64,000 bases of DNA from an uncultured virus (IMG/VR IMGVR_UViG_3300033388_007403) (Duplodnaviria > Heunggongvirae > Uroviricota > Caudoviricetes), in the IMG/VR virus record IMGVR_UViG_3300033388_007403; one strand, 5' to 3'. How positions within the stretch are numbered: position 1 is the first letter of the stretch; every line of letters begins with the position of its first letter. Below are positions 26,374-62,579 of the stretch, piece by piece. The notes below the pieces were generated by a model. It did not search any database. It was not told the DNA's origin and was given only the letters and a program-made list of their open reading frames with translations. Both the position numbers and the translations under genes were made by a program.

Positions 26374-26410
26374 AAAAAGAATGGGTCAGGAATAATTCCC
26401 GATCCATTCT
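26374..26410 (-). terminator. intrinsic terminator closing the repeat-headed array
   Basis: AGAATGGATCGGGAAT/ATTCCTGACCCATTCT hairpin followed by a T run on - strand. Confidence 0.7.
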
Positions 26411-26421
26411 ATCTTGTTCTG

Positions 26422-27018
26422 CTACTTTGCTCGGACGAACCGGACACCATTCATCTTGATCTTGGTGATGTTCTCTACTTTCGGACTCCGGTATATCACC
26501 TTATCCTTTGCGGGCTGAGCAGTTCCTTCGCGTTTCGGGGGAAAGAAACTCTTCATCTCCACAACCTCGGCTTCGGTCAGCGGAGTTCCCGACTCAATCC
26601 ATCGGTATTCCACATCGTGGCTTGCGAGAACACGACATTGGAGATAATAATCATCCCTGTCATTGTGTTTCAGGACAAACTTGGAGTTCCCGACATGATG
26701 GTTCCACTTCTGCGGCTGAGGGACAAACACGACATCCAGTCCCTCTTTGTCGGCTTTTCGCTGTACGCCCTTTGCGTATTCGTCGCCAATCATGATGTTC
26801 ATTCTCCCGAACTTCTCGACCAGCCCAATGAAGCGGTTCCCGGTCTTGTTCATCCGTGGAGTCGTAACCATCTCGATTTCAGCGAATGTCGCTCCTTTTT
26901 GTAGCAAACACGTTTCGACCAAAGACGTATCGCTAAAGAGGATAGTTGGTATCGTCTTTACTACGGTTTTGGCGACGACCTTTTCGGACTCTGTACTTTT
27001 TGTATCTTGTTCTTTCAT
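26422..27018 (-). CDS. conserved hypothetical phage protein (GC-rich gene)
   Basis: AAAGGAG RBS; 198 aa. Confidence 0.8.
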   Translation of the reverse strand: MKEQDTKSTESEKVVAKTVVKTIPTILFSDTSLVETCLLQKGATFAEIEMVTTPRMNKTGNRFIGLVEKFGRMNIMIGDEYAKGVQRKADKEGLDVVFVPQPQKWNHHVGNSKFVLKHNDRDDYYLQCRVLASHDVEYRWIESGTPLTEAEVVEMKSFFPPKREGTAQPAKDKVIYRSPKVENITKIKMNGVRFVRAK

Positions 27019-27234
27019 TTTCGGCTCCTTTCAGCCTTTTGTTGGCATCATTGCCAACACTTCATTAGAGTAAATTTTTTTGACTCTGGCGGTTCAAAAC
27101 GGAGAAACCAGATCCAGAAAAAAAGCGTTGATAAACTCCGCCGTACCATCCGCCACTATATCAGCATAAAATTTTTCTACTCTGGCGAAATGAAAGTGGA
27201 GCGATGGGGTCTCCAATCCCACCGCCCCGATAGT

Positions 27235-27696
27235 TCAGGACAACATCTCTGTTAATTGTCGAATTCGATTGTAGAACCCGCGACTGTGGATCGACTTTGG
27301 CAGGTTCGATACCTCGTAATCCATATAATGGACAAGCTCATGCAACAATGTCGAGATCGAACCCTTTGCCGACCTTTGTTGTCGCCTTGCAGCAGTCCAG
27401 CGATAGATCTGGATATTCGATCCCAGGAAACTCCGGATGAAAAGACCTTGCGTTTTTATGGACATCTTACCTCTTGTACTCTGTTTTACCACTTTCGGTT
27501 GAACACCATCAAACACGACCGGAATTATCGGGATTTGAAATGCCCCACAAACTCGATGAGCCAGATCCTGTAAGTTCTGTTGGCTAATCGAATCCAATTC
27601 CCGACATTGCCGATACAGTTCCTTCGCCTCGCGACTGAAGTTCACGACTGGCAAGGTTGCTTTTTGAGATTTATTGTAATTGTTGTTGTTCCGCAT
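27235..27696 (-). CDS. zincin-like metallopeptidase (HExxH)
   Basis: TLLHELVHY...HSRGF. Confidence 0.75.
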   Translation of the reverse strand: MRNNNNYNKSQKATLPVVNFSREAKELYRQCRELDSISQQNLQDLAHRVCGAFQIPIIPVVFDGVQPKVVKQSTRGKMSIKTQGLFIRSFLGSNIQIYRWTAARRQQRSAKGSISTLLHELVHYMDYEVSNLPKSIHSRGFYNRIRQLTEMLS

Positions 27697-27810
27697 CTTC
27701 TTTCCCTTTCAATGCCACCATTAACACTGTATAAGAGAAAATTTTATTCACTCTGGCGGAAAAAAAAGAAGAGCAGCGGGGTATCCAATCCCGCCACTCT
27801 TGAAAGTTGA

Positions 27811-28029
27811 CTATCTTACTCGACAATACACTTTTCTGGTTCTCGGTCGCATAAGCGAAAGAGTTCGACAAGAGCGACCTTGTTCCTCGGCTTCTCGGTC
27901 TATCGCGTCCAGACCTTTTTTGTTCCGCATGGAAGAATCAGGAGTAACTCCCACCTGATTTCCACTTCTCATCGCTACACCGAAAATTGACTTGATGTGA
28001 TCCTCTACTTTGTTTGTCGTGTTCTGCAT
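27811..28029 (-). CDS. hypothetical protein
   Basis: AAGGG RBS after repeat 28093. Confidence 0.65.
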   Translation of the reverse strand: MQNTTNKVEDHIKSIFGVAMRSGNQVGVTPDSSMRNKKGLDAIDREAEEQGRSCRTLSLMRPRTRKVYCRVR

Positions 28030-28137
28030 TTTCCAGCCCTTTCGATTTTTGTCGCCACCATTGACAACACCTTATAAGAATAAATTTTTTTCACTCTGGC
28101 GGAAAAAGAAACAGGGGGCTTTCGCCCCCCAATATTC

Positions 28138-28554
28138 TCAATCAAGTCTGGATTCGACTCTTGCCTCTATTCCGTATCCAGAAAGAACGGAAACCATCGC
28201 CATGCACGAAGCAACATTTACGGACATTTCTTGTCGCATACTTGCGTCGTAAACACTGAACCAACCACCTCCATAATAGTGATTATCGCAGTTGAACCGG
28301 AGTTCTTGCCTCTTCTTTGAGAGTTTTTTAGCAAGCTGGAAAAACTTTCCCCTTGCCGAATTCAAATGCACGTTTGCAAATCCACAAAGGTCTAATAGTT
28401 GACCGACGCACCGATCACCGTCCATTACTGCATGTTTTGGACCTGCATTTTGTAGTTCTGCCAGTTTTTCTCTTGCCGCATGCGTCCCAGCTTCACGACA
28501 TTCTCGCACCACTTTCAATACGAGTTCTTCTGTCCATTTTACCTTCTTAGTCAT
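28138..28554 (-). CDS. conserved phage hypothetical protein
   Basis: CGFA...QEM...GI.A..ESRLD pattern; own repeat and terminator. Confidence 0.75.
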   Translation of the reverse strand: MTKKVKWTEELVLKVVRECREAGTHAAREKLAELQNAGPKHAVMDGDRCVGQLLDLCGFANVHLNSARGKFFQLAKKLSKKRQELRFNCDNHYYGGGWFSVYDASMRQEMSVNVASCMAMVSVLSGYGIEARVESRLD

Positions 28555-28691
28555 TTTCTTACCCTTTCGATTTTTGCTGGCACTATTGCCAACACCCTAT
28601 CAGGATAAATTTTTTTCACTCTGGCGAAAAAGAAAAAGACAAGACGAGTCCTCAACTCGCCTTGCCACTGCAACATCATTTCTTACATCTT

Positions 28692-29027
28692 TTATCCAGA
28701 ATACCCGTTATCCTTCGCTTGCTGATCAATATGATTATCCCAATCTGGACCGTATTCCTCTTCTTCCAGTAAATCCCAGATTGTTGCGGAAAAGATGACA
28801 TTGGAACCATACTTTGCCACCAACTCAGTTATCGCCAAACCAGAACCAAGAACATCGTCAAACTCCTCAACTGTCGCACCCTTGCGAGCGGCATTTTGTA
28901 ATGCACCAAACTTACCCTGAAAGTCGCCTATGTCCAGACCATAGTCAACGAAACAAGCTGGCGACAACATCGCCGCAGAATCAAATATAACTGCATCGTA
29001 AACCGTCTGAGCTATTGTCCGTGCCAT
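28692..29027 (-). CDS. hypothetical protein
   Basis: RBS after repeat 29090. Confidence 0.7.
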   Translation of the reverse strand: MARTIAQTVYDAVIFDSAAMLSPACFVDYGLDIGDFQGKFGALQNAARKGATVEEFDDVLGSGLAITELVAKYGSNVIFSATIWDLLEEEEYGPDWDNHIDQQAKDNGYSG

Positions 29028-29099
29028 TTTCTTACCCTTTCAATTTTGCTGGCATTATTGCCAACACCTTATCAGAATAAATTTTTTTCACTCTGGCGG

Positions 29100-29906
29100 T
29101 TATCTCATTTGCATTTTGGACTTTTCTATTCTTTTATTATATTTTTTTATTGCTAAAATCAAATCATCTGTACAATAAATATCGTCAATATGAGCAATCT
29201 GGATTTCTTTTCTGTGGTCGATGCTATGATAAGACCAATCACATCCAGAAACAATATTTCCATTACAGGCTAAATATAGTTCTGTTCCACTAAAAGATAT
29301 TGTATCTCCATACTCTGATTCTTCAAAAGAATATACTGGAGTATCAAGAGCTCCAAACTCTTTTGCTCTGCCCTCATTCTTGAGATTCCTGGTCGTCATT
29401 TCCTCATCAGAATGTTTATAAACAATAGTCGTTCCAGATGAATCTTGTCCAAGACCATACTCCCATTCCAGAATCTCTTTTAATTTATTATAATTTCTAT
29501 CTCTTTTTTCTTTTTGTGCCCAATTAAAAGTTTCTGTATGAAATGAGTCAAAAGAGAAACCTATTGCAGAAACTTCATTATCTCCACAAATCATGTGCAT
29601 TCGATAAAAATAATCTGCTAACTCCTCAACATTGATTGATTTCCCGTTAGTTACCATAAAGAAATTTTCTATATCGCAATTACCGTGAATCAAACATTTG
29701 CGGATATATTCAAGAGTATCCATAGCCAGAGTAGGTTCTCCACCTCCAATGGTCAAAGTTCCGACATGATCAATCAGTCCCAACATTTTGTAGATATAGT
29801 AGTTGTTGATTGTCTTTCGTTGAGCGGGACCACGTAAGCAATGGCGACATTTCATATTACATTTACGACTTGCTTCAATCAAGAGATCATTTATCAACAA
29901 TTCCAT
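29100..29906 (-). CDS. radical SAM protein
   Basis: CNMKCRHC, GGEP, TNG. Confidence 0.9.
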   Translation of the reverse strand: MELLINDLLIEASRKCNMKCRHCLRGPAQRKTINNYYIYKMLGLIDHVGTLTIGGGEPTLAMDTLEYIRKCLIHGNCDIENFFMVTNGKSINVEELADYFYRMHMICGDNEVSAIGFSFDSFHTETFNWAQKEKRDRNYNKLKEILEWEYGLGQDSSGTTIVYKHSDEEMTTRNLKNEGRAKEFGALDTPVYSFEESEYGDTISFSGTELYLACNGNIVSGCDWSYHSIDHRKEIQIAHIDDIYCTDDLILAIKKYNKRIEKSKMQMR

Positions 29907-30088
29907 TTTCTTTCCCTTTCTATGCCACCATTGGCACTGTATAAGAGAAAATTTTATTCACTCTGGCGGATTGAAAAGAGAATAGGCAGAGTTTACTCTG
30001 CCTATTCTCAACACACAATACATCAAAAAGGAAGAACCATGAACCGCCGTTATTAACCCCACTAAGCGGATAGGGTATTATTATTTTG

Positions 30089-30436
30089 TTACCAGCCAAA
30101 CGACTGTGATTTTCTACGTTCATTCTCTGCTTTAGCTACTATTTGAGCAACTTCTCTTTGAGACTTTGTAGATGTAGGAAATCTTTTTACTGTTCCATCT
30201 GGCTCAAACCTGAAAGTTCCAACACATTTACAGTAGTTATTATCTCCTACCTGGTATGTCTTTTGTATCGTACCAGTTACTGCACCATCTCGCTGTTCTC
30301 GACCCACTTCATGGAAATATACAACTCCATTCTTTTCCCAACTGTTAGATGATTCAAGAGGCTTTCCAGCCGCTTTCAACTGAATCATCAACTGTTCCAT
30401 TGTACTCATTGCCAAAGAAGAACATGAATAACCCAT
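30089..30436 (-). CDS. hypothetical protein
   Basis: RBS after repeat 30493. Confidence 0.7.
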   Translation of the reverse strand: MGYSCSSLAMSTMEQLMIQLKAAGKPLESSNSWEKNGVVYFHEVGREQRDGAVTGTIQKTYQVGDNNYCKCVGTFRFEPDGTVKRFPTSTKSQREVAQIVAKAENERRKSQSFGW

Positions 30437-30730
30437 TTTCTTATCCCTTAAAAAGTATTATCATTTACACCTTATCAGTATAAATTTTTTTCACTCTGGC
30501 GAAATCAGCGGCTATTGACCACTTCAAATTCTTCAATGACTGCATCCTCAATATCTGCCCTTGTGGTCGTATCAGAGAAGTTGTATTCCATCTCCTCAAT
30601 GATCTCTGAAATCTCCACACCTTCATCAACTTTCATTGTTAATTTCACTTCGACCTTCACTGTTACTGTCCTCATCGTTGTCTCCTGTTCTTGTTCTATA
30701 AGAATAAAACATTATTTTTCCGAGAAAAAA

Positions 30731-31003
30731 CTATCCATCCTTCTTTTCAGATGTATTGTTCTTAATCCACTCAATAACATCTGACTGTTCAACAAAACTA
30801 TTTCCCTGTTCATCTTCCAATTCAAAACCACAATGCAAGCACTGGTAGGACAGAATCTGACTATCTCCGGCAGTAGGATTGTCATAGTCATACACTACAT
30901 CTTCATCAGTGATTCTTGTGATTGGGTAAGTCATAATCACTTGTTCAACTGAACCGAGTTCATGCTTTCCGCATTTGGGACATGTAAATTTGAGTTCATT
31001 CAT
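30731..31003 (-). CDS. zinc-ribbon protein, family of 44199/44470/44838
   Basis: CPKCG...YQCLHCG...VIEWIKNN. Confidence 0.7.
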   Translation of the reverse strand: MNELKFTCPKCGKHELGSVEQVIMTYPITRITDEDVVYDYDNPTAGDSQILSYQCLHCGFELEDEQGNSFVEQSDVIEWIKNNTSEKKDG

Positions 31004-31060
31004 TTTGATGGTTCCTTTCTCATGTAAATTTGAGTTCATTCATTTTGATGGTTCCTTTCT
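30981..31060. repeat. perfect 40-bp tandem duplication including RBS and start codon
   Basis: CATGTAAATTTGAGTTCATTCATTTTGATGGTTCCTTTCT x2. Confidence 0.95.
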
Positions 31061-31287
31061 AATCTATAAATATGGATTTTTTTCACTCTGGCGGAATCAT
31101 TTTGTTAATCCCTTTTCAAGAGCATCAAGATATTCTTTAGGCATTGTCAGTATACTTCTGGAGAAGAATATTGGACCTTCTTGGTTCATTAACTCCCAAT
31201 CTATTACTCTTTGCTTTTGTTCTTTTGTTCTTTTACGTCTTTTTTTGTCTTTTTTTGTCTTTCCCATTTTCTTATTCCTTTCAATAT

Positions 31288-31400
31288 CAAGAAAAAGCAC
31301 GGTTTTTGACTAAATGGCTGTTCTATACGCCACGTCGTTTTGTACTGAGAACAGGCTGCATTGCCGATACCGTATCACTTAATCAACCGCCTTTTTCTCG
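31288..31400 (-). ncRNA. structured RNA or leader of about 110 nt
   Basis: Three nested stems directly after repeat 31427. Confidence 0.55.
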
Positions 31401-32297
31401 ACACCTTATCAGTGTAAATTTTTATCACTCTGGCGGATCAAACCGCTATTATCTCTTTTCTCTCTTTTCTTCCTTTTCTCCCTTTTCTTTCAGGATTTGC
31501 TACCTTTTTTCTCAGGTTTTGAAGATGGCGACTAATTTGGTATCTATCATCTTCTTCCATCTTTTTGATAACAAAAGTAATAGTAGAGATAATTTTAGGA
31601 CAGCTTATTACTGCTATTTTCTGTCTTTTTTCTGCTGTTCTGACAACGATTGGGACAATATCTTCTTTTGCGATAATATCGAATCCTATTGCTTTCAGAT
31701 AAAGAGCAACTTCATTAAGACCTCTATTGTCTATCTCGAACATTTTCTTTACTCCAAAAAAGTTATCATCAACACTTTATCAGTGTAAAATTTTCTCACT
31801 CTGGCGGTTTGCCAAAGGTTACAAAGCAAACACACATTTTCCCATACAAAGGTTGTCCACTTACATCAGAATAAAAGCGATGAAAAGAGTATTTAAGATC
31901 CAGTAAAGCACCTTGTAATCCTGTTGTTGCTTGTCCAGTCCATTCGTGAGTTGGAAAGCAACCCACTAATCTGGACTGTAAAGATGCAGATTCTCTGTGG
32001 TTTTCAATTACATCCCAAACTGTTTTTTCATTTACAGACATAATAATACCTCAATATTCTCATCTTCATGTAGTTGAGCTATAAACTCTTCTTCTGTCAT
32101 ATCACTCCCAAACTGTTCAACCATTCTCCCATCTTTATTTATCGCAATATACAATGCGACTGCATATTGTTGTAATGCTATGTCCAGTTCTCCGTGTTCT
32201 TCTGTCTTAATCTTAATCAATCTACTCATTTTCTTATCCCTTAATTCGGCGTTATCATTAACACTTTATAAGAATAAAATTTTTTCACTCTGGCGAT

Positions 32298-32717
32298 TTA
32301 CACCGAACCCCTACTTATTCCTTGTGTACCTAATAGATCCCAATAGTTTGTATCTGTCCTGGATTCACAATCTCCGCCATAATAACTCATTTGGTCAACG
32401 GCAAGATAGAAAAGTCTATCTTCTTCATCCATATCTCTAAGACAATTCCAATCTGCAAACTCTGCAACTGAAACTTTTTTTCCAGCGACAAAATCATTCC
32501 ACAAACTCTGCAAATAATCAGCAGATTCATCTCTGCTGTTAACTGTGTATCCAGTTCCTCCGTTATCTTCTGCATTATTTCTAACCTCTACGATATTAAA
32601 ACTATCGCCATAGGACTCGAACCCCTTGCAAGGTGTTTCTCTTTTAATAAACATTCCACCATGAATTCGATGATTTACATCGCCAAAGTTATGCCATTTG
32701 TTTTTCTTGAATATCAT
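32298..32717 (-). CDS. hypothetical protein
   Basis: GDVN...HGG motif; RBS after repeat 32775. Confidence 0.7.
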   Translation of the reverse strand: MIFKKNKWHNFGDVNHRIHGGMFIKRETPCKGFESYGDSFNIVEVRNNAEDNGGTGYTVNSRDESADYLQSLWNDFVAGKKVSVAEFADWNCLRDMDEEDRLFYLAVDQMSYYGGDCESRTDTNYWDLLGTQGISRGSV

Positions 32718-33235
32718 TTTCTTATCCCTTAATTCGGTGTTATCATTAACACTTTATAAGAATAAAAAATTCTCACTCTGGCGGAACCGAAGTGAGAATT
32801 TTGAAGGTTTAATGTCGGTTGTTTTCAACCGATTACCCACCAACCTACAAGAGTGAATAAAGCATAAAAAGATGGTCTGCCGCTTCATTGTCTTCAACAG
32901 GACTCCACGACAGACCTAAATAACTCACAATTTTGTTGATCTTCAATCCCTGTAGAGTAGACAGTTCACATGAAAATCAACCCAACTCATCCAATTATAC
33001 GAAATTGGGAAACGCTTTTTCTAATTTCTAAGTCTAATCCATTTATTAAAGTAGGGTTTTTATCGCTTAGGCAGAATACACCATCCTTTCTATTACAAAA
33101 TTTTAATTATCATAATCATAATTGGAGCCAACGCTCTCTTATCTACTATATAAGTTCTGATTTTTTTCACTCTGGCGGATTAGGGAACAAGGAAGATTCT
33201 GGAGTTGTGTGTCCAGAACCTCCCTTGAGAAAATG

Positions 33236-33583
33236 TCAGTATTCACTTTTCAATAACAAGATACCATCTATCAGATATATCTCAATCTCGTCCAGTGGAA
33301 AGTCGGTATAAGGTATCTTCTGTTCCACAATATTCGGTTTTCCGCTATCTTCTTTCATCGTAAGAAGAGCAGAATTATCTGAATTCTTTTTCAGATTCCA
33401 GACCTGGAACTGTTGCTTCTTTTTGTGGCTACTGATTGTAGTCAATAACCAATAACTTTCACAACTTTCCCACAAAAACTTGATTCCATCGGTATAATTG
33501 AACCAGAGATAACGGCTCGAAAAATGCTGTTCAGTCCCGATACAATGAGCTAATCCCGTTAAAATCTCACTCTTTTTCAACAT
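33236..33583 (-). CDS. DUF6876-like protein
   Basis: GTE..YTDG..L...SYWL..FQVW..Q.IPYTDFPL..LLL.SEY. Confidence 0.7.
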   Translation of the reverse strand: MLKKSEILTGLAHCIGTEQHFSSRYLWFNYTDGIKFLWESCESYWLLTTISSHKKKQQFQVWNLKKNSDNSALLTMKEDSGKPNIVEQKIPYTDFPLDEIEIYLIDGILLLKSEY

Positions 33584-33715
33584 TTTCTTGCTCCCTTAAT
33601 CAGTGTTATCATTAACACCTTATCAGAATAAAATTTTTTCACTCTGGCGGAAAAAATCACCCCGCCGAGAGCCATATTGTAAATATCTCTCATTGGGGCG
33701 ATGCGGTCAAGTTAT

Positions 33716-33934
33716 TTAATACCCTGATTCTGCCTCTTTTTTCTCTATCATCTCTTTGAAAAGACGATAAACATCAGCTTTTTTCCTGGCAGTGATTCCA
33801 TATGTCCTTTTGATATGGGCACAAATCGAACCACCGCGAGATTTCAGACCTTTCATCTCCAGACCCAGTGCCGACAACTGCGACTTCATCTGAAAGAGTT
33901 TGATACCATTCGGATCTGTAATTACTGTTGCCAT
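33716..33934 (-). CDS. small hypothetical protein, copy 1 of a triplicated cassette
   Basis: RGGSICAHIKRTYGITARKK. Confidence 0.75.
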   Translation of the reverse strand: MATVITDPNGIKLFQMKSQLSALGLEMKGLKSRGGSICAHIKRTYGITARKKADVYRLFKEMIEKKEAESGY

Positions 33935-34001
33935 TTTCTTTTCCCTTCAAAAGTGTTATCATTTACACCTTATCAGTATAAATTTTTTTCACTCTGGCGA
34001 A

Positions 34002-34208
34002 TTAGTAACCCGCCAGTTCTTCAGCCTCTTTCACCATTTTCTCAAATTGATCAGCAACATCTTGTTTCTTTCTGACAGTGATTCCGTATATCCTCTTGAT
34101 ATAGGCACAGATTGAACCACCTCTGAATCTTATTCTCATAATCTCCATCTCTGTTGCTAACTCTGCAATCTTCAATGCACTCTGCTCTTTTCTAATCTTC
34201 TTACTCAT
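34002..34208 (-). CDS. small hypothetical protein, chimeric copy 2
   Basis: 3' half near-identical to 34474-34692; different N-terminus. Confidence 0.7.
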   Translation of the reverse strand: MSKKIRKEQSALKIAELATEMEIMRIRFRGGSICAYIKRIYGITVRKKQDVADQFEKMVKEAEELAGY

Positions 34209-34473
34209 TTTACTCTCCTCTCGGTATTACCACAAGATCACGCTTCCACAAAGTTTCTCTTACAACAGAGTGTTCTCCTCTCTTTACTGGAGTATCGTAC
34301 GTTACAAATACCTTACCCTCAGTACTTATAAAACCTTCATATACCTCAGGTATCTGATCAACTACTCCTGTTACCTCTGGACTCTGCTTCAATCTTACTT
34401 TCGTTCCCTTCTTCATTTTACTTTCCTTTCTTATTTACACCTTATCAGTATAAATTTTTTTCACTCTGGCGAA

Positions 34474-34692
34474 TTAGTAACCTGCCAGTTCTTCAGTTTC
34501 TTTCACCATTTTCTCAAACTGATCAGCAACATCTTGTTTCTTTCTGGCAGTGATTCCGTATGTCCTTTTGATATGGGCACAGATTGAACCACCTCTGAAT
34601 CTTATTCCCATAATCTCCATCTTTAATGCCGACAACTGCGATTTCATTTGAAAGAGACTAATTTTATCTTGTCCTGTAATTACTGTTGCCAT
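34474..34692 (-). CDS. small hypothetical protein, copy 3
   Basis: MATVIT...RGGSICAHIKRTYG. Confidence 0.75.
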   Translation of the reverse strand: MATVITGQDKISLFQMKSQLSALKMEIMGIRFRGGSICAHIKRTYGITARKKQDVADQFEKMVKETEELAGY

Positions 34693-34900
34693 TCTACTTT
34701 TCTTTCAACTCTAAAATTATGCTTTCGATAGTTACTAACCTCATATTTAATATCTCTGAAATTTCCTCTACTGATTTTTTCTCTTCCCTCAACTTTTTTA
34801 CCTTGTCAATAACAAACTGTGGTGTTTGTTTTTTTCCTGTCATTTTACTTTCCTTTCTTATTTACATCTTATCAGTATAAATTTTTTTCACTCTGGCGGT

Positions 34901-36045: not shown

Positions 36046-36346
36046 TACACTACTACAACAAAATTTTCTTACTCTGGCGGAATCAGCAATGTACTTTATT
36101 CATTATCTTATCGATAACATATCTCTCCATACATTGCCAAAGAGTCTCAAAATTATTCAACCTCTCAATTGCATCGAATAAATTAGCATCTATATCCTCT
36201 GCTCCAGTGATACTACCTGCTCCGATCCAATTCTCATTAAACCAGGTGTCAATCATCTTCTTCTGTCTCTTGCTTAACTTTCTCATTTTCTACTCCATAA
36301 ACATTATCAACATCTTATCAGTATTAAATTTTCTCACTCTGGCGGA

Positions 36347-55537: not shown

Positions 55538-55642
55538 ACTACTGCTCCCTAAAAATTTCACTTCAATTAACATTACTTCAACATCTCACTAATCTATATT
55601 TTTTTCACTCTGGCGGAATTAAAAAATTGATGTATATACAAA

Positions 55643-56389
55643 TTATATATCTTTTATAATTTCTAAAAACTTAAAAAATTCTTCATCTGTTTTTGAGCAT
55701 TTCATCGAGTTGCAACCTCTACAAGCCACCACAAGATTTTCTATACTATGTCTTCCTCCTCTAGATAAAGGAATCTTGTGATCTATTGTAGCATCTTTTT
55801 TATATCCTGCTATCTTTTGACCACATTGTTTTTTACAGTAATAACATTCTAAAACATCAACATTTAATATTTTTTCATAAAAATTTCTAATTTCATCTTC
55901 ATTGCCTATCTCACAATTATATTTTTGTGCTACTTTTTTAACCTGTCTTACTCTACTTGTTATTCTTCCTCTTTTTTTATATCTTTGTCGTTGAAGTAGA
56001 GCTTTTTCAGGATTTTCTTTAGCCCATTTAACACAACGGGCATTTTCTTTTTTTCTGTATTCTTCATCTTCTTTATATCTTTTACTTCTTTTTTCTAATA
56101 CCATTTCTCTATTTTTATAATACCATTCTTTGTTAGCCTCATTCATTTCTTTTTTATGCTCTTTTCTATACTGAGCATTATATTCTTTAACCTTTTCTTT
56201 GTTATTCTTTTTATAACTTTCCCAACTTTTTCTTTTTGTCTTTTTCTTTTGTTCCTCGGAAACTCTTTGTCCAGCACATTTGCATTCAAAACTACAATAA
56301 TGATTTTTTGATCTTTTTATTCGTGAAGGATTCTTTTCAATAGCAACTCCACAAAAATTACAATTAACTGTTACTTTACTTTTTTTCAT
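55643..56389 (-). CDS. HNH homing endonuclease
   Basis: CYYC..TIDHKIPLSRGG.H...NLVVAC..CN..K; promoter AAAGAA-N17-GAATATAT at 56421-56451. Confidence 0.9.
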   Translation of the reverse strand: MKKSKVTVNCNFCGVAIEKNPSRIKRSKNHYCSFECKCAGQRVSEEQKKKTKRKSWESYKKNNKEKVKEYNAQYRKEHKKEMNEANKEWYYKNREMVLEKRSKRYKEDEEYRKKENARCVKWAKENPEKALLQRQRYKKRGRITSRVRQVKKVAQKYNCEIGNEDEIRNFYEKILNVDVLECYYCKKQCGQKIAGYKKDATIDHKIPLSRGGRHSIENLVVACRGCNSMKCSKTDEEFFKFLEIIKDI

Positions 56390-56561
56390 ATTATTTTCTC
56401 CCTATAAAATATACTCTAACATATATTCTATTAAAAGAACCATAATTCTTTATTTTTTTCGTAATACTGTTTATCTTTAATTACATTAAAATTCTTTTTC
56501 CTGAAATTAAAAAAAGCGGAGTATCAATTAAGATACTCCGCTCCAGAAGGTAGTGCCAGAA

Positions 56562-56828
56562 TCATAAAATTTTATGACTCCAACTTAACCCATCTTTCTT
56601 TAAAACCACATAATGTGATCTTGTTATTCTGCTCCCCCTCATAAAATGTCCTTCACTCTCTGAAGTATAACTCCAGAAATTGATTCGGAACTTATTTTCT
56701 CCAACTGGCTTATAATCGACTCTATACTCACCTACAGCTCTTGGAAAATTCTCTTCCAAATACTCATTTATTGTTGTCTCATTTTTAACTACTTCTGTCT
56801 TCGGTGCTGTAACTTCTGTCACATTCAT
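56562..56828 (-). CDS. hypothetical protein
   Basis: RBS after repeat 56881; terminator at about 56509-56542. Confidence 0.7.
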   Translation of the reverse strand: MNVTEVTAPKTEVVKNETTINEYLEENFPRAVGEYRVDYKPVGENKFRINFWSYTSESEGHFMRGSRITRSHYVVLKKDGLSWSHKIL

Positions 56829-56892
56829 TATGCATCTCCAAAAAAATCATCGTTAACAATTTATAAATTATAATTTTTTCACTCTGGCGGAT

Positions 56893-56976
56893 TGCCCAGA
56901 AGAGGACTCGAACCTCCAAGCCAATTAAGGCATATGCCCCTCAAGCATACGTGTTTGCCGATTTCACCACCTGGGC
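56893..56976 (-). tRNA. tRNA-Leu(GAG)
   Basis: Cloverleaf with long variable arm; loop TT-GAG-GG. Confidence 0.9.
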
Positions 56977-56980
56977 TTAA

Positions 56981-57054
56981 TACTCCTGGTGGGATTCGAA
57001 CCCACAAACCCTGCGTTTTAATCGCAGTCCATAAGCCAATTCTGGTACAAGAGC
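56981..57054 (-). tRNA. tRNA with TAA anticodon, atypical (no long variable arm)
   Basis: CTGCG-ATTAAAA-CGCAG; intact T arm. Confidence 0.7.
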
Positions 57055-57153
57055 TTAAATTATTTTTATTATTATTTATTCTATCTCCATCAATATAATC
57101 AACTTCAAGAAGAATTAATTCCCCAAACCATTTTTTAAAACCACTACCAAAAA

Positions 57154-57227
57154 TACCCAGAAGTGGATTTGAACCACCAAACACGACATTTTAAATCTCG
57201 CGGCTTTGCCAATTAGCCTACCTGGGC
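57154..57227 (-). tRNA. tRNA with TAA anticodon (Leu), short variable arm
   Basis: CGAGA-TTTAAAA-TGTCG (one mismatch). Confidence 0.7.
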
Positions 57228-57868
57228 TTTATTTTATCTCTATACCCAATCAGTGCTTTATATATTCTCAACTGGATCTCAGAATCAAATTCTAAAACAC
57301 CACTCTCCACTACTTCTATCATTACTTCCCTGGATCTCTGAAAGATATCACCATCAGTGCTATCTTGCACTAGAGTTGTAGCCGCTGCAGTTGTTAAATT
57401 ATTAATATAATCTTGTTGTAGTTTATTCAACTATTACATCCTCCATCTCTATTATCTCTTTTATATGAACCTCTAAACCACATGCATCACATGAAAGATA
57501 ATGATGCTCATTTGATTCACACTCATCAAACAAATGAATATCTCTTTTACAGAAATACTTCTTAAACAACCACCAAAAGAATTTATTCTGCAAAAAAGAA
57601 AAATATGTTATACCTCTATATTTCATAATTTTTCACTCCATGGACAAAATAACAATCATCATTAATCTTATCTACTTTTACCCTCTTCCAAGGATTTGTA
57701 TATTTATTTTTCTTACCATTATCATAACGAATAAAAATGATATCCCCTACTTTGGGGAGAGATCTCTTACTCTTCACAATAGCTGCACCATAAGGCATAG
57801 TACCTAATTTTACATATGGTAATTTAATCATAATGAGTAAGTGAGATTTTTTCTCACTCTGGCGGAAA

Positions 57869-57940
57869 CAGGCACACAAGGATTCGAACCCTGAACTTTT
57901 CTTTTGGAGAGAAAAATGATAGCCATTTCACCATGCGCCT
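57869..57940 (-). tRNA. tRNA-Trp(CCA)
   Basis: TTTCT-CTCCAAA-AGAAA; G73. Confidence 0.9.
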
Positions 57941-57945
57941 TTAAA

Positions 57946-58019
57946 CGTATGCGGAAAGAATCGAACTCTCCTCATCGGGATTTGGAAACCCAATCGCCTG
58001 CCTTGGAACATTCGCATAC
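57946..58019 (-). tRNA. tRNA-Trp(CCA), atypical D arm
   Basis: GTATGCG/CGCATAC acceptor; loop TTCCAAA. Confidence 0.65.
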
Positions 58020-58024
58020 AATAA

Positions 58025-58097
58025 TATCCCTGGAAGGACTCTAACCCTCATCTTCGCGTCCGTAGCGCGATGTTCTATACAATTATACTACAAGGAT
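58025..58097 (-). tRNA. tRNA-Arg(ACG), degenerate D/T loops
   Basis: TCGCG-CTACGGA-CGCGA; T loop TTAGAGT. Confidence 0.7.
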
Positions 58098-58102
58098 CTA
58101 AA

Positions 58103-58175
58103 TGCTCTCGCCCAGACTCAAACTGGGATCTTTTCTTTAGGAGAGAAATATTCTATTCTGTTATACTACGAGAGC
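58103..58175 (-). tRNA. tRNA-Arg(CCT), degenerate D/T loops
   Basis: TTTCT-CTCCTAA-AGAAA; T loop TTTGAGT. Confidence 0.7.
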
Positions 58176-58179
58176 TAAA

Positions 58180-58252
58180 TACACCTGAGAGGACTCGAAC
58201 CTCCAACACTCAGTTTAGAAATCTGAGACTCTTCCATTTGAGCTACAGGTGC
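58180..58252 (-). tRNA. tRNA-Arg(TCT)
   Basis: Loop TTTCTAA; canonical D and T arms. Confidence 0.85.
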
Positions 58253-58257
58253 TTTAA

Positions 58258-58343
58258 TACCGAAGACAGGAATCGAACCTGCACTCCCTTAACGGGAACA
58301 AGGACCTAAACCTTGCGTGTCTGCCTAGTTTCACCACTTCGGC
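58258..58343 (-). tRNA. tRNA-Leu(TAG)
   Basis: CAAGG-TTTAGGT-CCTTG; long variable arm. Confidence 0.9.
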
Positions 58344-58344
58344 T

Positions 58345-59034
58345 TTATTCTAACCATTTTCTGATGCAAGTATCACTTACACCATATTTTCTTCCTACAG
58401 CACAATAATTAGTATCTTTAACTTCTTTTAATAATTGTTCTTTAGAAGGTCTATTTTTAACTTTTTTTTCTACATTAGAATAGTCTCTAGTTCTATTAAA
58501 ACAAGAGCTACACAATCCAGTCTTTGATTTCTTTTTTGTGCTCTTCCCGCACGAATCACAATAAAATAATATTTTTGGTATTATTTTTCTTCTTCTAAAA
58601 GTAGAAGTTTGACTATGACAATGAAGACATAATATTCTTAAATTAGACAATTCATTATTATAAATATCTCCATCAATATGATCTAATTCTAATGTAAGAG
58701 GTTCATTATTCCAAATTGGTAATTGACCACATTTAGAGCACTTATTGTCTATCAATCCCTCTCTTATTAATCTTTTTTTTAAGTAAGTAGATTTTACAAC
58801 AACATCTTTTTTAAGATAAAAACTTAATGGCTCCTTATATTTATTAAAATTATAAGATTGAGTCCCAAAATGAGTTGTATCTAAATCCAATTCTTTTATT
58901 TTATTCTTAATAACCTTATGAGTTCCACCAGCTGGTCTTAATCCCAATTTTCTAATAACCTGGGTTACACTAAAGCTTTCTTTTACAGATAAAATTATAT
59001 CTTCATTAGTATATTCTCTATATTGTCTTACCAT
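58345..59034 (-). CDS. HNH homing endonuclease
   Basis: CSKCG..W..PLTLELDHIDG..N..NLRILC.HCHSQT; promoter AAAGGT-N17-GAATATATA at 59066-59097. Confidence 0.92.
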   Translation of the reverse strand: MVRQYREYTNEDIILSVKESFSVTQVIRKLGLRPAGGTHKVIKNKIKELDLDTTHFGTQSYNFNKYKEPLSFYLKKDVVVKSTYLKKRLIREGLIDNKCSKCGQLPIWNNEPLTLELDHIDGDIYNNELSNLRILCLHCHSQTSTFRRRKIIPKILFYCDSCGKSTKKKSKTGLCSSCFNRTRDYSNVEKKVKNRPSKEQLLKEVKDTNYCAVGRKYGVSDTCIRKWLE

Positions 59035-59107
59035 TTTTATTCTCCCATATAAATATCATTCTATCTATATATTCGATATAAAATGGCAGATACCTTTAAT
59101 TATTTCT

Positions 59108-59135
59108 GGAACTTTGCCAGTTTGCCCACCCCCGC
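59108..59135 (-). pseudogene. tRNA 5' fragment (acceptor strand plus D arm)
   Basis: GCGGGGG-TG-GGC-AAACTGGCAAA-GTT truncated at the HNH cassette. Confidence 0.6.
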
Positions 59136-59247
59136 TTTAGTGCTACAAAAAATATTCTCCCACCTAGTCTACGCAGCAAGGATCTTGTAAAACTGATCAA
59201 TTCTCCCAACTAATCCTGAAGGGTGGTTTTTCAGTGACGAATATTAA

Positions 59248-59318
59248 TGCGCCTGCCCAGACTCGAACTGAGAAAGCTAGCTTGGAAGGCTAGCGTGTTA
59301 CCATTACACCACAGGCGC
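59248..59318 (-). tRNA. tRNA-Gly(TCC)
   Basis: CTAGC-CTTCCAA-GCTAG. Confidence 0.9.
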
Positions 59319-59433
59319 TTTAAAGAATTGGTAGGGACGAAAGGTCGTGGGCTTTGACCCCACCTACCACACCACAGTCCAGAATCCAGTTTACTGTGAT
59401 ACTGTTTTCCTAGTGTACACCTACCCATTCTAA

Positions 59434-59505
59434 AGTGGATGGTGGGAATCGAACCCACACATTACGGTGTTGCAAACCGCACCCTTGCCATTCGGGATCA
59501 CCCAC
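59434..59505 (-). tRNA. tRNA-Cys(GCA)
   Basis: GCGGT-TTGCAAC-ACCGT; U73. Confidence 0.9.
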
Positions 59506-59510
59506 ATAAG

Positions 59511-59583
59511 GACCAAAGACGGGATTTGAACCCGTACCGAAAGATTCACAGTCTTCCATGCTACCAATTACACCACCTTGGAC
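59511..59583 (-). tRNA. tRNA-His(GTG)
   Basis: GAAGA-CTGTGAA-TCTTT; G-1:C73. Confidence 0.85.
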
Positions 59584-59682
59584 ATCTACGGTTTACTTTT
59601 AGTTATTGTGTAGGGAGTCTCACCGTTTAAAAACAACCCTTGCAGTTTATTCCCATTTGGCCAAATAGGACCGCAACTTACG

Positions 59683-59766
59683 TGAGAGCACTCGGAGTCG
59701 AACCGAGACACCCTTGCGGGAACGTTTTTACAGACCGCCGAGGTTCACCATGTCCCCTATACTCCC
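59683..59766 (-). tRNA. tRNA-Tyr(GTA)
   Basis: Loop CTGTAAA; long variable arm. Confidence 0.85.
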
Positions 59767-59775
59767 TTTTGTAAA

Positions 59776-59849
59776 TACCCCTGAGTGGATTCGAACCACC
59801 AAGACTTTCGGTTAAGAGCCGAATGCTTTGCCTAATAAGCTTCAGAGGC
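59776..59849 (-). tRNA. tRNA-Lys(CTT)
   Basis: TTCGG-CTCTTAA-CCGAA. Confidence 0.9.
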
Positions 59850-60008
59850 TTGAATATAAGACAAAAATTTATGCAGTTAATATCACCGGGTATCTATCTC
59901 AGTTATATTAAATACATGAATCTTTTTCAAAACATATTATACTAAACATGTCTTCATGTCAAAGCTAGATACCATAGCTCCTAGTATAAAATATTTCTAG
60001 TCTTATAA

Positions 60009-60093
60009 TGAGAGTGGAGGGATTCGAACCCACACGTCCGTTAGGATCCTGGTTAAAAGCCAGGTACAGACTGCCAATATCTGCAACACTCCC
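60009..60093 (-). tRNA. tRNA with TTT (Lys) anticodon and a long variable arm
   Basis: CCTGG-CTTTTAA-CCAGG then ATCCTAACGGACGT. Confidence 0.75.
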
Positions 60094-60383
60094 TCTACTT
60101 CTTTGCTAACTGCTCATCTTCTATCTGGATCTTAACTTCTTTCAACTCATCCCGATATTTAGTAATAATCTCTAAAAGTCCTTGATATAATCTGTAAGAT
60201 ATTTCAGGAAACATTTTAATCTTACTCATATTACTATCTAATATAGAAGCCATAATCACACCTTTATGACTAGTTATACTGATGTTCTCGACATTATCTA
60301 ATAATCCATTACAATCATCAATTTCATCAGCAATTTCTAGCCTTTGTTTTTTATTATTTTTACACGCAAAAAAACCAGATGGT

Positions 60384-60899
60384 TTATGTCCCATTACTAC
60401 TCTTCAGAATTCTATTACTTATATTTAATTTATCACCAAACGGTGCTACTGTTTTAATTATCCCATTATTAGAATGGGGAAGGGAGAGTATCTTACTACC
60501 CTTCCTATTATTACATTGATCACACATAGTCTGAAGATTATCCAGATGATTAGCTCCACCTTTTGACTTAGGCATTATATGATCCTTTGTCATAAGCCTT
60601 GCTTTTCCTTCAAATATAGCATAAAGATTAAAATGAGTACTATCTCGATCAGATCTACTTGTAAAAGTATCAGCACTGATTATAGTACCTTCTAACCCAC
60701 ATCTTGTACATCTCCTGGATCTTTTAAAACACTGAAGTCGTAATGAGTCAATCCTTATAAGGTGCAACGTTCCTTTAATATCTACTTCAATAGAACCAGC
60801 ATTAGGATCAACTAGATCTAATACACTTTCAGGTTCATATGACTGTAAGTGGATATATCCATTATACAATATTTCTTCATCAATTATCTTCAGCATCAT
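60384..60899 (-). CDS. HNH endonuclease
   Basis: CTRCG..HFNLY..LMTKDHIMPKSKGG..NLQTMC..CN..K. Confidence 0.9.
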   Translation of the reverse strand: MMLKIIDEEILYNGYIHLQSYEPESVLDLVDPNAGSIEVDIKGTLHLIRIDSLRLQCFKRSRRCTRCGLEGTIISADTFTSRSDRDSTHFNLYAIFEGKARLMTKDHIMPKSKGGANHLDNLQTMCDQCNNRKGSKILSLPHSNNGIIKTVAPFGDKLNISNRILKSSNGT

Positions 60900-60910
60900 T
60901 TCCCTTTCAA

Positions 60911-60984
60911 TGGGTCTGACAGGAATCGAACCTGCGACAAATCGGTTAAAAGCCGAATGCTCTACCTAACTGAGCTACAGACCC
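60911..60984 (-). tRNA. tRNA-Lys(TTT)
   Basis: Canonical cloverleaf; loop CTTTTAA. Confidence 0.92.
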
Positions 60985-61198
60985 TTATAGGCTATCTGTT
61001 CCACTTTTTGTTCTACAATGTGGACACACTGGTTTTGCCTTCACTGAGATATCCCATCCACCCAATTCATCAACAGGAATATGACTCAGAGCTTGATCTC
61101 TGTTCAGATAATCATCTCCAATTAATAAGCTGTCCTGGATATTACACTCACAACATTCAAGTTCTAATGTGAACCTAGTAACTTGTTTTTTTTCTATT

Positions 61199-61558
61199 TT
61201 AAACATTTATTCCTTCTTCTACTCTTTTCCAATTTACATGTTTCCAACCACCACCTTTAGATAATTGCAGCAAGTTCTTAGCTCTGTCTTTTCCAAAACT
61301 AAGGATCCTATCAGCATGTTCATCTGAACATAGCTTTTTCGGTGCTATATATGAATTTTCTTCTGAATGCTTCAGTAACTCAGCTATCTCTGGGCTGATA
61401 TACTCTTTCTTGCCATTACCATTCTTCTTTTCTTTCTTTTCGGTGCTGGGCTTTTCTTTTTTCCGCGAAGAAAAATCAAATCCACATCCTGGACAGATTC
61501 TTGTTCTAACACCTAATTCAAGGCTACACTCTGGACAAGTTTTTTTACCTTTTGGCAT
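61199..61558 (-). CDS. zinc-ribbon hypothetical protein
   Basis: MPKGKKTCPEC..G.R...CP.CGF. Confidence 0.7.
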   Translation of the reverse strand: MPKGKKTCPECSLELGVRTRICPGCGFDFSSRKKEKPSTEKKEKKNGNGKKEYISPEIAELLKHSEENSYIAPKKLCSDEHADRILSFGKDRAKNLLQLSKGGGWKHVNWKRVEEGINV

Positions 61559-61620
61559 TCTTCTTCCTTTCAATAAATATTAACACCTTATTAATGTTAT
61601 ATTTTTTCACTCTGGCGGAA

Positions 61621-61694
61621 TGAGTCCTCCTGGATTCGAACCAGGAAATCGCCAAGTTATGAGCTTGGTGCTCTGCCAGTTGAGCTAAGGACCC
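61621..61694 (-). tRNA. tRNA(CAT), Ile2 or elongator Met
   Basis: CCAAG-CTCATAA-CTTGG. Confidence 0.85.
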
Positions 61695-61697
61695 AAG

Positions 61698-61773
61698 TGG
61701 AGATGAGTGGAATCGAACCACCGACACCCGCCTCTTCAGGGCAGTGCTCTACCAAAAACTGAGCTACATCTCC
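61698..61773 (-). tRNA. tRNA-Phe(GAA)
   Basis: CTGCC-CTGAAGA-GGCGG. Confidence 0.92.
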
Positions 61774-61778
61774 AATAA

Positions 61779-61854
61779 TAGCGGGAGCAGGATTCGAACC
61801 TGCGTCAAACGGCTTATGAGACCGTGCTGGAACCAAACTCCAGTCCACCCCGCG
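61779..61854 (-). tRNA. tRNA-Met(CAT), initiator-like
   Basis: CGCGGGG start with unpaired C1; loop CTCATAA. Confidence 0.85.
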
Positions 61855-61861
61855 ATAAAAA

Positions 61862-61932
61862 AGCCGATGATAGGAGTCGAACCCACATTTCCTGAGTACA
61901 AAACAGGAGTATTGCCATTATACTACATCGGC
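61862..61932 (-). tRNA. tRNA-Thr(TGT)
   Basis: GCCGATG/CATCGGC; loop TTTGTAC. Confidence 0.85.
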
Positions 61933-62038
61933 GTTTAAAAAATTCCAGATACATTAGAGATAAAAGTGATTTCCAATTTCCCCAGTGGGGATGATAAGAT
62001 TCGAACTTATGATAACTTTTATCATTCAACCTGGATAA

Positions 62039-62111
62039 TGGATACATACGGGACTCGAACCCGTAATTCCTGGGTGCAAACCAAGTGTGTTCCCAATTAC
62101 ACCAATGACCC
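62039..62111 (-). tRNA. tRNA-Ala(TGC), bulged acceptor stem
   Basis: Loop TTTGCAC; G3:U70. Confidence 0.75.
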
Positions 62112-62183
62112 ATAGTCCTTTGCGGTAGACCTATATTATCTACCCTTCAAGTGATCAACTAAGGCTATTTTCAAACAAAGGAA

Positions 62184-62254
62184 TGGAGATACCGAGAATC
62201 GAACTCGGATTTGGACATTGCAAGTGTCCTGTGCTCCCGTTACACTATACCCCC
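62184..62254 (-). tRNA. tRNA-Ala(TGC)
   Basis: GGACA-CTTGCAA-TGTCC; G3:U70. Confidence 0.9.
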
Positions 62255-62579
62255 AACTAATTAATCATTCATCATCATAAAAACAAAAATTAAAATAATA
62301 ATCCAAAATACTGACATCTCTCCCCCCCTAAATCTCTATTTATTTCACTCTCCTAAAGAGATCCACAGTAGCAGTAATCGGTGCTAGAGCTGTATGAAAT
62401 AAGAATTTGATAAACAAAAATGGTCCTACAGGATCAGCAGTATAAAAATATTCATCTGCTTTCCATTTTCCCCATTCCAAACACATCCATGCATAACATA
62501 CTTCCATAATCATTACTCTTTCCTTTCTTTTTTACTTTACTAATGAGACTTTTTCTTACTCTGGCGGAATTAAAAAAAT

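Follow-up and report, generated by a model that had tools for sequence, protein, structure and literature searches.

A promoter-like two-box repeat heads the units of a hyperplastic accessory-gene array in an uncultured Caudoviricetes phage

What is the function of a short DNA sequence that recurs dozens of times in a phage genome, always in the same orientation and typically just ahead of a small gene? The question is raised by the uncultured virus IMGVR_UViG_3300033388_007403 (Duplodnaviria; Heunggongvirae; Uroviricota; Caudoviricetes) of IMG/VR, from which a stretch of 64,000 nucleotides, called the window here, was analysed at its full length. Positions 26374..62567 of the window hold, on the minus strand, an array of 48 repeat-headed units with about 77 open reading frames (ORFs) of at least 40 aa and 21 tRNA genes. 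We consider that the repeat is probably a two-box promoter specific to a phage class, at which a phage sigma factor or activator would direct the host RNA polymerase. Promoter classes of phages that are scattered over a hyperplastic region are of a known kind. What is new is the signal itself, the fact that 10 bp of it are invariant, the density of 48 copies in 35.5 kb and the occurrence of one signal in several very large uncultured phages.

A previous interpretation made from the letters of the window (the sequence-only reading) had counted about 48 copies, all on the coding strand and none left of 27 kb, and the scans bear out the count, the strand and the boundary. With at most one mismatch to the 10-mer CCGCCAGAGT, 49 matches lie on the minus (coding) strand at 27083..62567 and 50 in the whole window, for a mean of 0.57 and a maximum of 3 expected by shuffling (100 shuffles). 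The 49 consist of 41 exact copies, six of TCGCCAGAGT, one of CTGCCAGAGT and one of CCGCGAGAGT, and the sole match on the plus strand, at 4647, has one mismatch. A weight matrix built over positions -3..+38 relative to the first C of the 10-mer (C0) scored 46 sites at 23.7 bits or more, against -4.3 for the best non-site on the minus strand and -11.0 for the best position on the plus strand. Two lower-scoring copies were judged real: the one at 51603, in which the second box is one base closer, and the degenerate CTGCCAGAGT copy at 52697 (52688..52697, minus strand), which keeps the A-tract, lacks the second box and scores 14.4 bits. The doubtful CCGCGAGAGT match (35957..35966, minus strand) is probably not a true copy. 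It was not counted because the rest of the motif is missing and because it lies within a structured RNA, which brings the number of copies to 48.

All 48 true copies are on the gene strand and none is found left of 27083, with a median copy-to-copy spacing of 540 nt (range 96-3753). Listed by C0 on the minus strand, from the upstream end of the array, they stand at 62567, 61618, 57865, 56890, 55616, 52697, 52523, 51603, 50029, 49332, 48228, 46637, 45734, 45188, 44824, 44185, 43259, 42557, 41541, 40676, 39594, 39160, 38711, 38182, 37222, 36682, 36345, 36080, 35865, 35510, 34899, 34472, 34000, 33650, 33178, 32784, 32296, 31807, 31436, 31094, 30502, 29969, 29099, 28627, 28102, 27759, 27188 and 27092.

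The aligned copies give the consensus (a/t)(a/t)T CCGCCAGAGT GAAAAAA tTTa yw CT g ATA ag GTGT t R A, followed in most of them by tgATGATAAy, a T-run, GGAG or AAGGG, an A-run and ATG. Information per column rises from below 0.6 bits to more than 2 bits exactly at the first C, is high to +16, peaks again at +24/+25, +27..+29 and +32..+35, and declines past about +38. The second box, CTnATAnnGTGT, shares one register in 45 of the 48 copies, as the claim of a fixed box spacing had it; in two copies the distance is one base shorter and in one the box is missing. In the weight-matrix scan of the window, box 2 never scored highly without box 1. The best-conserved -10-like hexamer is gATAag at +26..+31, with G or A in its sixth position and a variable base in its first (at +26, G in 23, T in 18 and A in 8 of 49 aligned copies). 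A purine occupies +37, 6-7 nt past box 2, in 47 of the 49. These elements are seen together in a typical unit head at 46574..46637 (minus strand), where box 1 CCGCCAGAGT at 46637-46628 is followed by the A-tract and T-run spacer, box 2 CTgATAagGTGT at 46613-46602, the conserved purine (the predicted transcription start) at 46600, and an A/T-rich leader with GGAG that runs to the ATG at 46574, at a distance of 63 nt from C0 to the start codon. The leader beyond the predicted start is also conserved, within subfamilies, and leaders of one type are grouped in the array, those with AAGGG at 27.7-35.5 kb and those with GGAG at 36-56 kb.

The 10-mer is not palindromic and its copies lack dyad symmetry. 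Across the 48 copies there is no Watson-Crick-type covariation between columns and no conserved hairpin or inverted repeat; the column pairs with the highest mutual information are mainly adjacent (+20/+21, +39/+40 and +38/+39), and local inverted repeats in single copies, such as 57865, are not conserved. The absence of covariation and the non-palindromic 10-mer imply a monomeric, oriented reader. Promoters of N4-type virion RNA polymerases form a short conserved DNA hairpin with a 3-nt loop. A hairpin site of this type, or an attC-like one, was rejected as a candidate, given that inverted repeat, hairpin and covariation are all missing from the 48 copies.

The placement of the repeat relative to genes is equally constrained on its downstream side. 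After 39 of the 48 copies, a Shine-Dalgarno sequence and the start codon of an ORF of at least 30 aa follow within 38-100 nt of the first C, with a median of 64 nt to the start codon (interquartile range 62.5-70.5). The sequence-only reading had described a leader, a ribosome-binding site and one to four small genes behind the typical copy; the leader and the binding site hold for these 39, whereas the units actually contain from 0 to 6 ORFs, and unit 61618 also holds 12 tRNA genes. On the upstream side, a stable terminator-like hairpin with a T-rich tail stands at most 55 nt ahead of 15 of the 48 copies, in line with the terminators noticed earlier at unit ends. The genes behind these copies need a new transcription start, since the copies lie behind terminator-like hairpins. 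One such hairpin, with 14 pairs and a T-run, directly precedes the copy at 29969 (29978..30009, minus strand), and another follows the last unit and marks the downstream end of the array (26386..26402, minus strand). An upstream stop codon lies no more than 3 nt from the repeat start in 22 of the 48 copies, which leaves no room for a hairpin, and in 3 of those 22 the upstream ORF ends on a TGA contained in the motif. In three further copies, a tRNA gene ends 1-3 nt before the repeat. Because copies abut stop codons and tRNAs in this way, nothing upstream of the first C appears to be constrained, and spacer DNA has been squeezed out.

Beyond the window, at least two other lineages of large phages have the element at the head of gene units. 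The first is represented by G001, a 219-kb IMG/VR contig with an estimated completeness of 44%, which carries three full copies and a variant one, CCACCAGAGT. They are confined to its last 12 kb, and its first 207 kb has none. All are on the gene strand, and two are found directly behind T-runs. G001 was alone in having more than one copy in the IMG/VR motif scans, and it belongs to a large phage, with DnaB, RecA, many glycosyltransferases and a Ro60/TROVE protein. Its comparison with the 142 ORFs of the window (E at most 1e-4) gave a single match, a 35-residue HNH segment. Some of its genes are interrupted: that for DNA polymerase III alpha is broken up into three ORFs, and intein/LAGLIDADG insertions occur at 120-183 kb in genes for GDP-mannose dehydratase-like, DNA polymerase III gamma/tau-like and papain-like protease proteins. 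The second lineage is represented by SDBV01003012.1, a metagenome contig of 25 kb, the examined parts of which contain 13 copies. The element was also found on three short contigs, SDBV01200176.1, SDBV01384329.1 and Ga0172381_10405037. The matches listed in the metagenome scan amounted to 121 stretches, and at least four contigs have the extended motif; the other matches listed in the metagenome and IMG/VR scans are single and lack the second box, those of the metagenome scan being chance matches. Further metagenome relatives may exist. Across the window, the SDBV contig and G001, box 1 and the A-tract are invariant, and box 2 drifts from CTGATAAGGTGT in the window to CTGATGAAGTGT in SDBV and CTAATATATTGT in G001.

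The two-box pattern in its fixed register had no match in 185,579 bacterial and archaeal species genomes (one each). This absence indicates that the signal belongs to a phage group and not to a known cellular regulon, and a host regulon was rejected as a candidate on the same result. Among GenBank phages, megablast found no match for window positions 26-46 kb, and blastn of one 76-nt unit head returned chance-level matches only. A string search of the literature for CCGCCAGAGT found no description of the motif, the matches listed being primer or macrophage contexts.

These observations converge on promoter anatomy, because the two boxes have a fixed spacing, a single orientation, a hard upstream edge and a conserved purine, and because the element keeps a short, fixed distance to the ribosome-binding site, is placed after terminators and is conserved among phages without common genes. 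With the A at +27 set as position -11, box 1, the invariant asymmetric 10-mer, would span approximately -37 to -28 of about 38 bp of constrained DNA, followed by the A-tract and T-run spacer and then, at a fixed distance, by the -10-like box 2. The purine at +37/+38 from the first C would be the transcription start, leaving a 25-30-nt A/T-rich leader with a strong Shine-Dalgarno sequence up to the start codon. Since the element does not match the host consensus and is absent from cellular genomes, we infer that the host RNA polymerase would read it only with a specificity factor supplied by the phage, the candidates being a sigma factor of the phage and a MotA-like activator that substitutes for -35 recognition. 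The 48 units would then form one co-regulated temporal class of accessory genes, probably for host takeover and anti-defence, together with tRNAs. If such a factor had first to be made, the block would be delayed-early or middle. The 48 direct-orientation copies of 40-75 bp may, in addition, recombine with and convert one another, adding to the hyperplasticity of the region.

The suggestion that the element is a non-sigma-70, phage-specific promoter-like signal thus finds support in its occurrence in other large phages and its absence from cellular species genomes, and also in a scan for the sigma-70 consensus, which flagged only two of the 48 copies (44806-44779 and 30484-30457). Sigma-70-like sites are not enriched in the array (72 vs 62.9 expected; 78 vs 77.0 expected). 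Sigma-70 promoters pair a TTGACA-like -35 with a TATAAT-like -10 at a spacing of 16-18 nt, and A at position 2 and T at position 6 of the -10 are invariant. A plain housekeeping sigma-A promoter was rejected because no more than two copies were flagged and because the sixth -10 position is G or A and not T. An ordinary host sigma-A promoter in another register, whose -35 would be TTTAyW at +18..+23 and whose -10 would be GATAAy at +40..+45, is an unlikely explanation. The consensus does contain TTTAca and gAtAay at these positions, separated by a spacer of 16-17 nt, and the scan flagged exactly that register at its two copies. The A-tract, which lies directly upstream and resembles the UP-element consensus, would serve as such an element, and CCGCCAGAGT would be an activator or repressor site that switches the whole block. 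However, no more than the two copies pass the scan, the hexamer that would be the -10 has little conservation, with A at position 2 in 31/49 copies and T at position 6 in 21/49, and CTnATAnnGTGT, which would have to be the spacer, is far better conserved, unlike a spacer. Moreover, transcription would start only a few bases ahead of the Shine-Dalgarno sequence. A somewhat lower probability attaches to a repeat that acts on RNA, as a processing site or as a leader for translation or stability in long read-through transcripts, where a phage or host nuclease would cut at the 5' edge of the repeat and release gene-sized mRNAs and tRNA precursors. Any read-through transcript must indeed contain the repeat, as 22 of the 48 copies abut a stop codon and 3 abut tRNA 3' ends; the motif frame supplies the TGA that ends three upstream ORFs, and the leader is conserved within subfamilies down to the start codon. 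Nevertheless, the 15 copies behind terminator-like hairpins would leave their downstream genes without a transcript, secondary structure and covariation are not conserved, no Rfam family matches, and strict spacing of two boxes across a spacer of variable sequence is typical of DNA recognition.

The window contains a single perfect promoter of the host type, TTGACA-17-TG-n-TATAAT (53019..53047, minus strand, 12/12 matches). It lies inside the long unit 55616, ahead of gene 52765-52998 and about 30 nt upstream of a Shine-Dalgarno sequence and ATG, and may be an internal promoter read by the host. A perfect TTGACA-17-TATAAT is a hint that the canonical consensus is the one used by the host polymerase and is open to the phage as well.

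Several points weigh against the phage-specific promoter. Neither a sigma factor nor an RNA polymerase is tied to the phage of the window. G001 does encode three sigma-70-family proteins, namely two encoded in tandem, of 205 and 201 aa (Sigma70_r4, E 7.9e-13 and 1.4e-5), whose best NCBIfam matches are FliA/WhiG models far below the curated cut-offs, and a SigH-like protein of 239 aa (NF006147, E 5e-22), all three matches being below the curated full-length cut-offs. As G001 and the window have no protein in common except for HNH, these genes lend plausibility only; in IMG/VR, the G001 sigma that was searched had no relative other than itself. A T7-like RNA polymerase family had no match in G001, but it had none in the control genomes either, so that this negative carries no weight. 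Sigma-70 and AsiA-like proteins have been reported from huge phages, in the account given in PMC7162821. No MotA, AsiA or gp28 homologue turned up here, in searches none of which was aimed at them. The invariant, GC-rich upstream box of 10 bp is longer than usual -35 elements, and the -10-like box is without the last-position T that sigma-70-type -10 elements keep. Should a factor made by the phage be required, the genes would also not be immediate-early, which fits poorly with a cargo of apparent host-takeover type unless the factor is injected. Finally, part of the constraint could act on RNA, given the conservation of the leader within subfamilies. A more ambitious version of the promoter hypothesis is possible but doubtful: CCGCCAGAGT-N14-CTnATAnnGTGT would be the signal of an undescribed factor borne by a clade of ~500-kb-class phages and, at the same time, a common "plug" for the homologous exchange of accessory genes. 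A divergent sigma, or a protein that appropriates sigma in the manner of MotA, could be this factor, and it might enter the cell along with the DNA.

How the array changes between relatives bears on whether the repeats could also delimit mobile units. Bases 1-7134 of SDBV01003012.1 are collinear with window positions 26.1-35.9 kb (67-79% identical in nucleotides), and a further match links its base 15.4 kb to 41.3-41.5 kb of the window. Nine elements, seven proteins (28-78% identity) and two non-coding units, are common to both in the compared stretch, out of ~28 window ORFs and ~20 SDBV ORFs, and the remainder is lineage-specific. Their order, a-b-c-d-e-f-g-h-i in the window and a-b-d-c-e-f-h-g-i in SDBV, differs by two swaps of neighbours. 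Furthermore, SDBV01384329.1 joins a homologue of gene 46640-47152 to the head of unit 49386-49985, which in the window stand 3 kb apart and in the opposite order. The block is therefore highly plastic (hyperplastic), and the idea of a reshufflable library survives in the variable content, the nine common elements and the two swaps, whereas the breakpoints give no support to the repeats as borders of the units of exchange. Breakpoints had been predicted to fall at the repeat. When the relative was aligned, 24 of 30 homology-block ends lay within 100 nt of a repeat start and six at repeat-free gene-gene junctions, whereas a gene-boundary null already places 68% (38 of 56 gene ends) beside a repeat, so that the excess is not significant (p=0.107). 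Gains and losses also occur inside units, and a common gene can be first in its unit in one phage and second in the other.

The copies evolve in concert within each genome. The repeat consensuses of the window and of SDBV differ at six positions, and all 13 SDBV copies are nearer to the consensus of their own genome, as are 39 of the 48 window copies (seven are ties and two show the opposite). In three of five orthologous units, each promoter is closer to its own genome's consensus than to its orthologue. Copies that lie near each other in the array show a slightly greater resemblance than copies far apart (Spearman 0.18, permutation p 0.0005), and units have been duplicated in tandem (45191-44836 vs 44827-44468, 83%; 34622-34433 vs 34150-33961, 95%). 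The evidence for exchange among copies is suggestive only, because co-evolution with a reader protein would give the same genome-wide shift.

The integron-like character that had been proposed for the array did not hold up, and dedicated sites for site-specific recombination, similar to integron attC sites or to the tRNA-derived cassette sites of bacteria of the candidate phyla radiation (CPR), with a recombinase encoded outside the window, are very improbable. The sharp 5' edge that abuts the preceding gene would suit such sites, as would the heterogeneous cargo with few paralogues, the two swaps of adjacent units and the altered gene adjacency in relatives. Yet the repeat has neither inverted-repeat nor hairpin architecture, and no recombinase family, integrase included, was detected by Pfam among the 142 ORFs of the window or by a second search among 101 ORFs, as the sequence-only reading had already noted for recombinases. 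The changes inside units, the six block ends at repeat-free junctions and the lack of enrichment over gene boundaries also stand against it, and a crossover site would not need to run into a ribosome-binding leader at a fixed distance from the start codon. The likeness to integrons is that of a one-directional array of small heterogeneous genes punctuated by a repeat. Integrons have the tyrosine recombinase IntI, with attI and a common Pc promoter, beside the array, and their attC sites are imperfect inverted repeats whose hairpin is the substrate of recombination. It ends at the lack of an attC-like imperfect palindrome and, in the window, of an integrase, and at the polarity of the units, since integron cassettes are promoterless with a 3' attC, in contrast to a 5' repeat that brings each unit its own promoter-like signal and ribosome-binding site.

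Without an integrase or recombinase in the window, the closest known system is not the integron but the promoter-early stem-loop (PeSL) cassette of T4-type phages (Arbiol et al. 2010, PMC2839356). The two have in common that they are conserved repeats of composite structure between genes, described for PeSL as combining a terminator stem-loop, promoter, Shine-Dalgarno sequence and start codon, and both provide ~50-100 bp of dispersed homology for recombination (PMC2839356). The hyperplastic regions are alike in being rich in orphan genes and in the indels, replacements and reordering that separate relatives (PMC2839356). Recombination between the dispersed promoter-terminator repeats has been demonstrated experimentally for PeSL, as have mini-circles and promoter and terminator activity (PMC2839356), whereas the present element is known from sequence. 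It also differs in that PeSL promoters are sigma-70-like and the present element is not, in that a stem-loop accompanies only 15 of the 48 copies, and in the greater density of the array (48 copies in 35.5 kb) and the invariance of the upstream box.

Phages are also known to create promoter classes for a modified host polymerase, as with the T4 middle promoters (MotA box and AsiA) and the SPO1 cascade of the gp28 and gp33/34 sigma factors. The element resembles these in having a -10-like element and a phage-specific upstream box at a fixed distance that would replace the host -35, and in the temporal class of many small transcription units that it would serve; its box sequence is unrelated. 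The consensus of sigma-28/sigma-D (FliA) is TAAA-N15-GCCGATAA, and the CTGATAA of box 2 resembles the CCGATAA core of that -10, although the G at +26 is variable and the upstream box is unrelated to TAAA.

The genes carried by the array are small and diverse. The median length of the 77 ORFs of at least 40 aa is 94 aa, and paralogue families are few and small. Pfam recognized a PARP with WGR and regulatory domains, radical SAM, SprT-like, 3D, DUF932, DUF6876 and isochorismatase-like proteins and several HNH endonucleases. The cargo named in the sequence-only reading is thus recovered for PARP, SprT-like, 3D, radical SAM and DUF932, whereas GHKL reached only a sub-threshold match (E 0.02) and a macrodomain was not found by Pfam in the window ORFs. 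The nearest phage relatives of the PARP-like protein and of a 282-aa protein come from unrelated phages of many hosts, and relationships of this breadth are expected for mobile accessory genes. In IMG/VR, a 607-aa protein had one weak match and the PARP-like protein none. At 56893..63215 (minus strand), 24 tRNA genes form a cluster with four repeat copies among them, and the array holds 21 of these 24 tRNA genes of the window. Within this cluster, at 60009-60984 (minus strand), an HNH endonuclease gene (60384-60899) and a 99-aa ORF stand between two tRNA-Lys(ttt) genes. The locus measures 677 nt in the SDBV relative against 1157 nt in the window, as if a homing endonuclease had been inserted and a tRNA duplicated.

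In nine units the repeat is not directly followed by an ORF, and the expected structured RNAs are among them. The transcript of unit 36080 (35866..36043, minus strand) is non-coding and highly structured (minimum free energy -65.7, z -6.07, 0/200 shuffles as good). In the 174-nt ORF-less unit headed by 52697, positions 52524-52660 also fold well (z -4.55), with a strong terminator at the end. Other ORF-less transcripts are near the shuffle level (unit 33178, z -0.51; unit 27188, z 0.17). Units 36080 and 33178 have in common the 15-mer AGGUCUGYCGUGGAG, with exact copies at 35925 and 32903, and the stem in their folds (35866-36043 and 32785-33141, respectively) closes on CGGCAGACC; unit 33178 is kept in the SDBV relative at 68% identity. 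At the gathering score, Rfam recognized nothing but tRNAs, leaving the ORF-less units without a family match, and at E of at most 1 it gave a weak YrlA-like match and two others. The YrlA-like stretch (RF02553; 62577-62701, minus strand; 24.1 bits for a gathering score of 69, E 0.56) has a tRNA-like GGTTCGAGTCC arm and is located just upstream of the first repeat. In G001, the Ro60/TROVE protein gene directly precedes the first repeat copy.

Two more repeat-headed stretches have counterparts in the SDBV relative. The 96-nt ORF-less unit at 27093-27188 (minus strand) is 73% identical there (L054, ~2134-2235), and its predicted transcript begins with GGCGGAUGGUACGGCGGAG, in which GGCGGA occurs twice and could pair with the UCCGCC of the repeat. 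The unit may encode a small regulatory RNA, or the complementarity may be due to chance. At 41059-41541 (minus strand), about 480 nt behind a repeat contain no ORF of at least 40 aa and are followed by a 66-aa ORF; positions 41325-41496 are 76% identical in the SDBV contig, and the stretch may encode a non-coding RNA or else serve as a long leader with a regulatory role.

The composition of the locus changes at its borders. The G+C content is 0.39-0.43 at 26000-30000, against ~0.33 in the rest of the array and 0.29-0.31 in the neighbouring block. Leaders at this downstream end of the array have a GC hairpin (GGCA...TGCC) and an AAAGGG ribosome-binding site, and the same units are found in the SDBV relative. 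At the opposite end, the helix-turn-helix (HTH) protein at 63219-63869 matched only hypothetical HTH_23-type clusters in a protein atlas. From 2128 onward, the minus strand carries nearly all genes, and the neighbouring block at 2128..26208 (minus strand) contains about 60 same-strand small genes and no repeat copy in the motif and matrix scans. Within this repeat-free block, at 16514-25900 (minus strand), ten ORFs open with the identical codons ATGAAYTGGTAT (MNWY, usually MNWYK), with start codons at 25900, 25546, 24529, 23078, 22399, 21880, 21440, 21123, 20922 and 17110. The ORFs of the block are little alike, except for an untagged adjacent pair (23451-23831 and 23081-23461). MNWY looks like a common N-terminal tag on unrelated proteins, perhaps a signal for sorting, packaging or processing.

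These results concern the way in which very large uncultured phages, none of which is in culture, schedule hundreds of small orphan genes. An invariant signal of 38 bp offers a computational handle for calling one temporal gene class, a DNA probe for fishing out the reader protein and a natural marker with which the exchange of genes between related phages can be followed. Were an ordinary phage sigma factor to prove the reader, the array would be a tidy but expected case of a phage promoter class in a hyperplastic region; a new kind of specificity factor would add a mechanism by which phages take over transcription. Moreover, if the repeat does act as a common plug, a gene that lands behind a copy would be expressed at once in every member of the clade.

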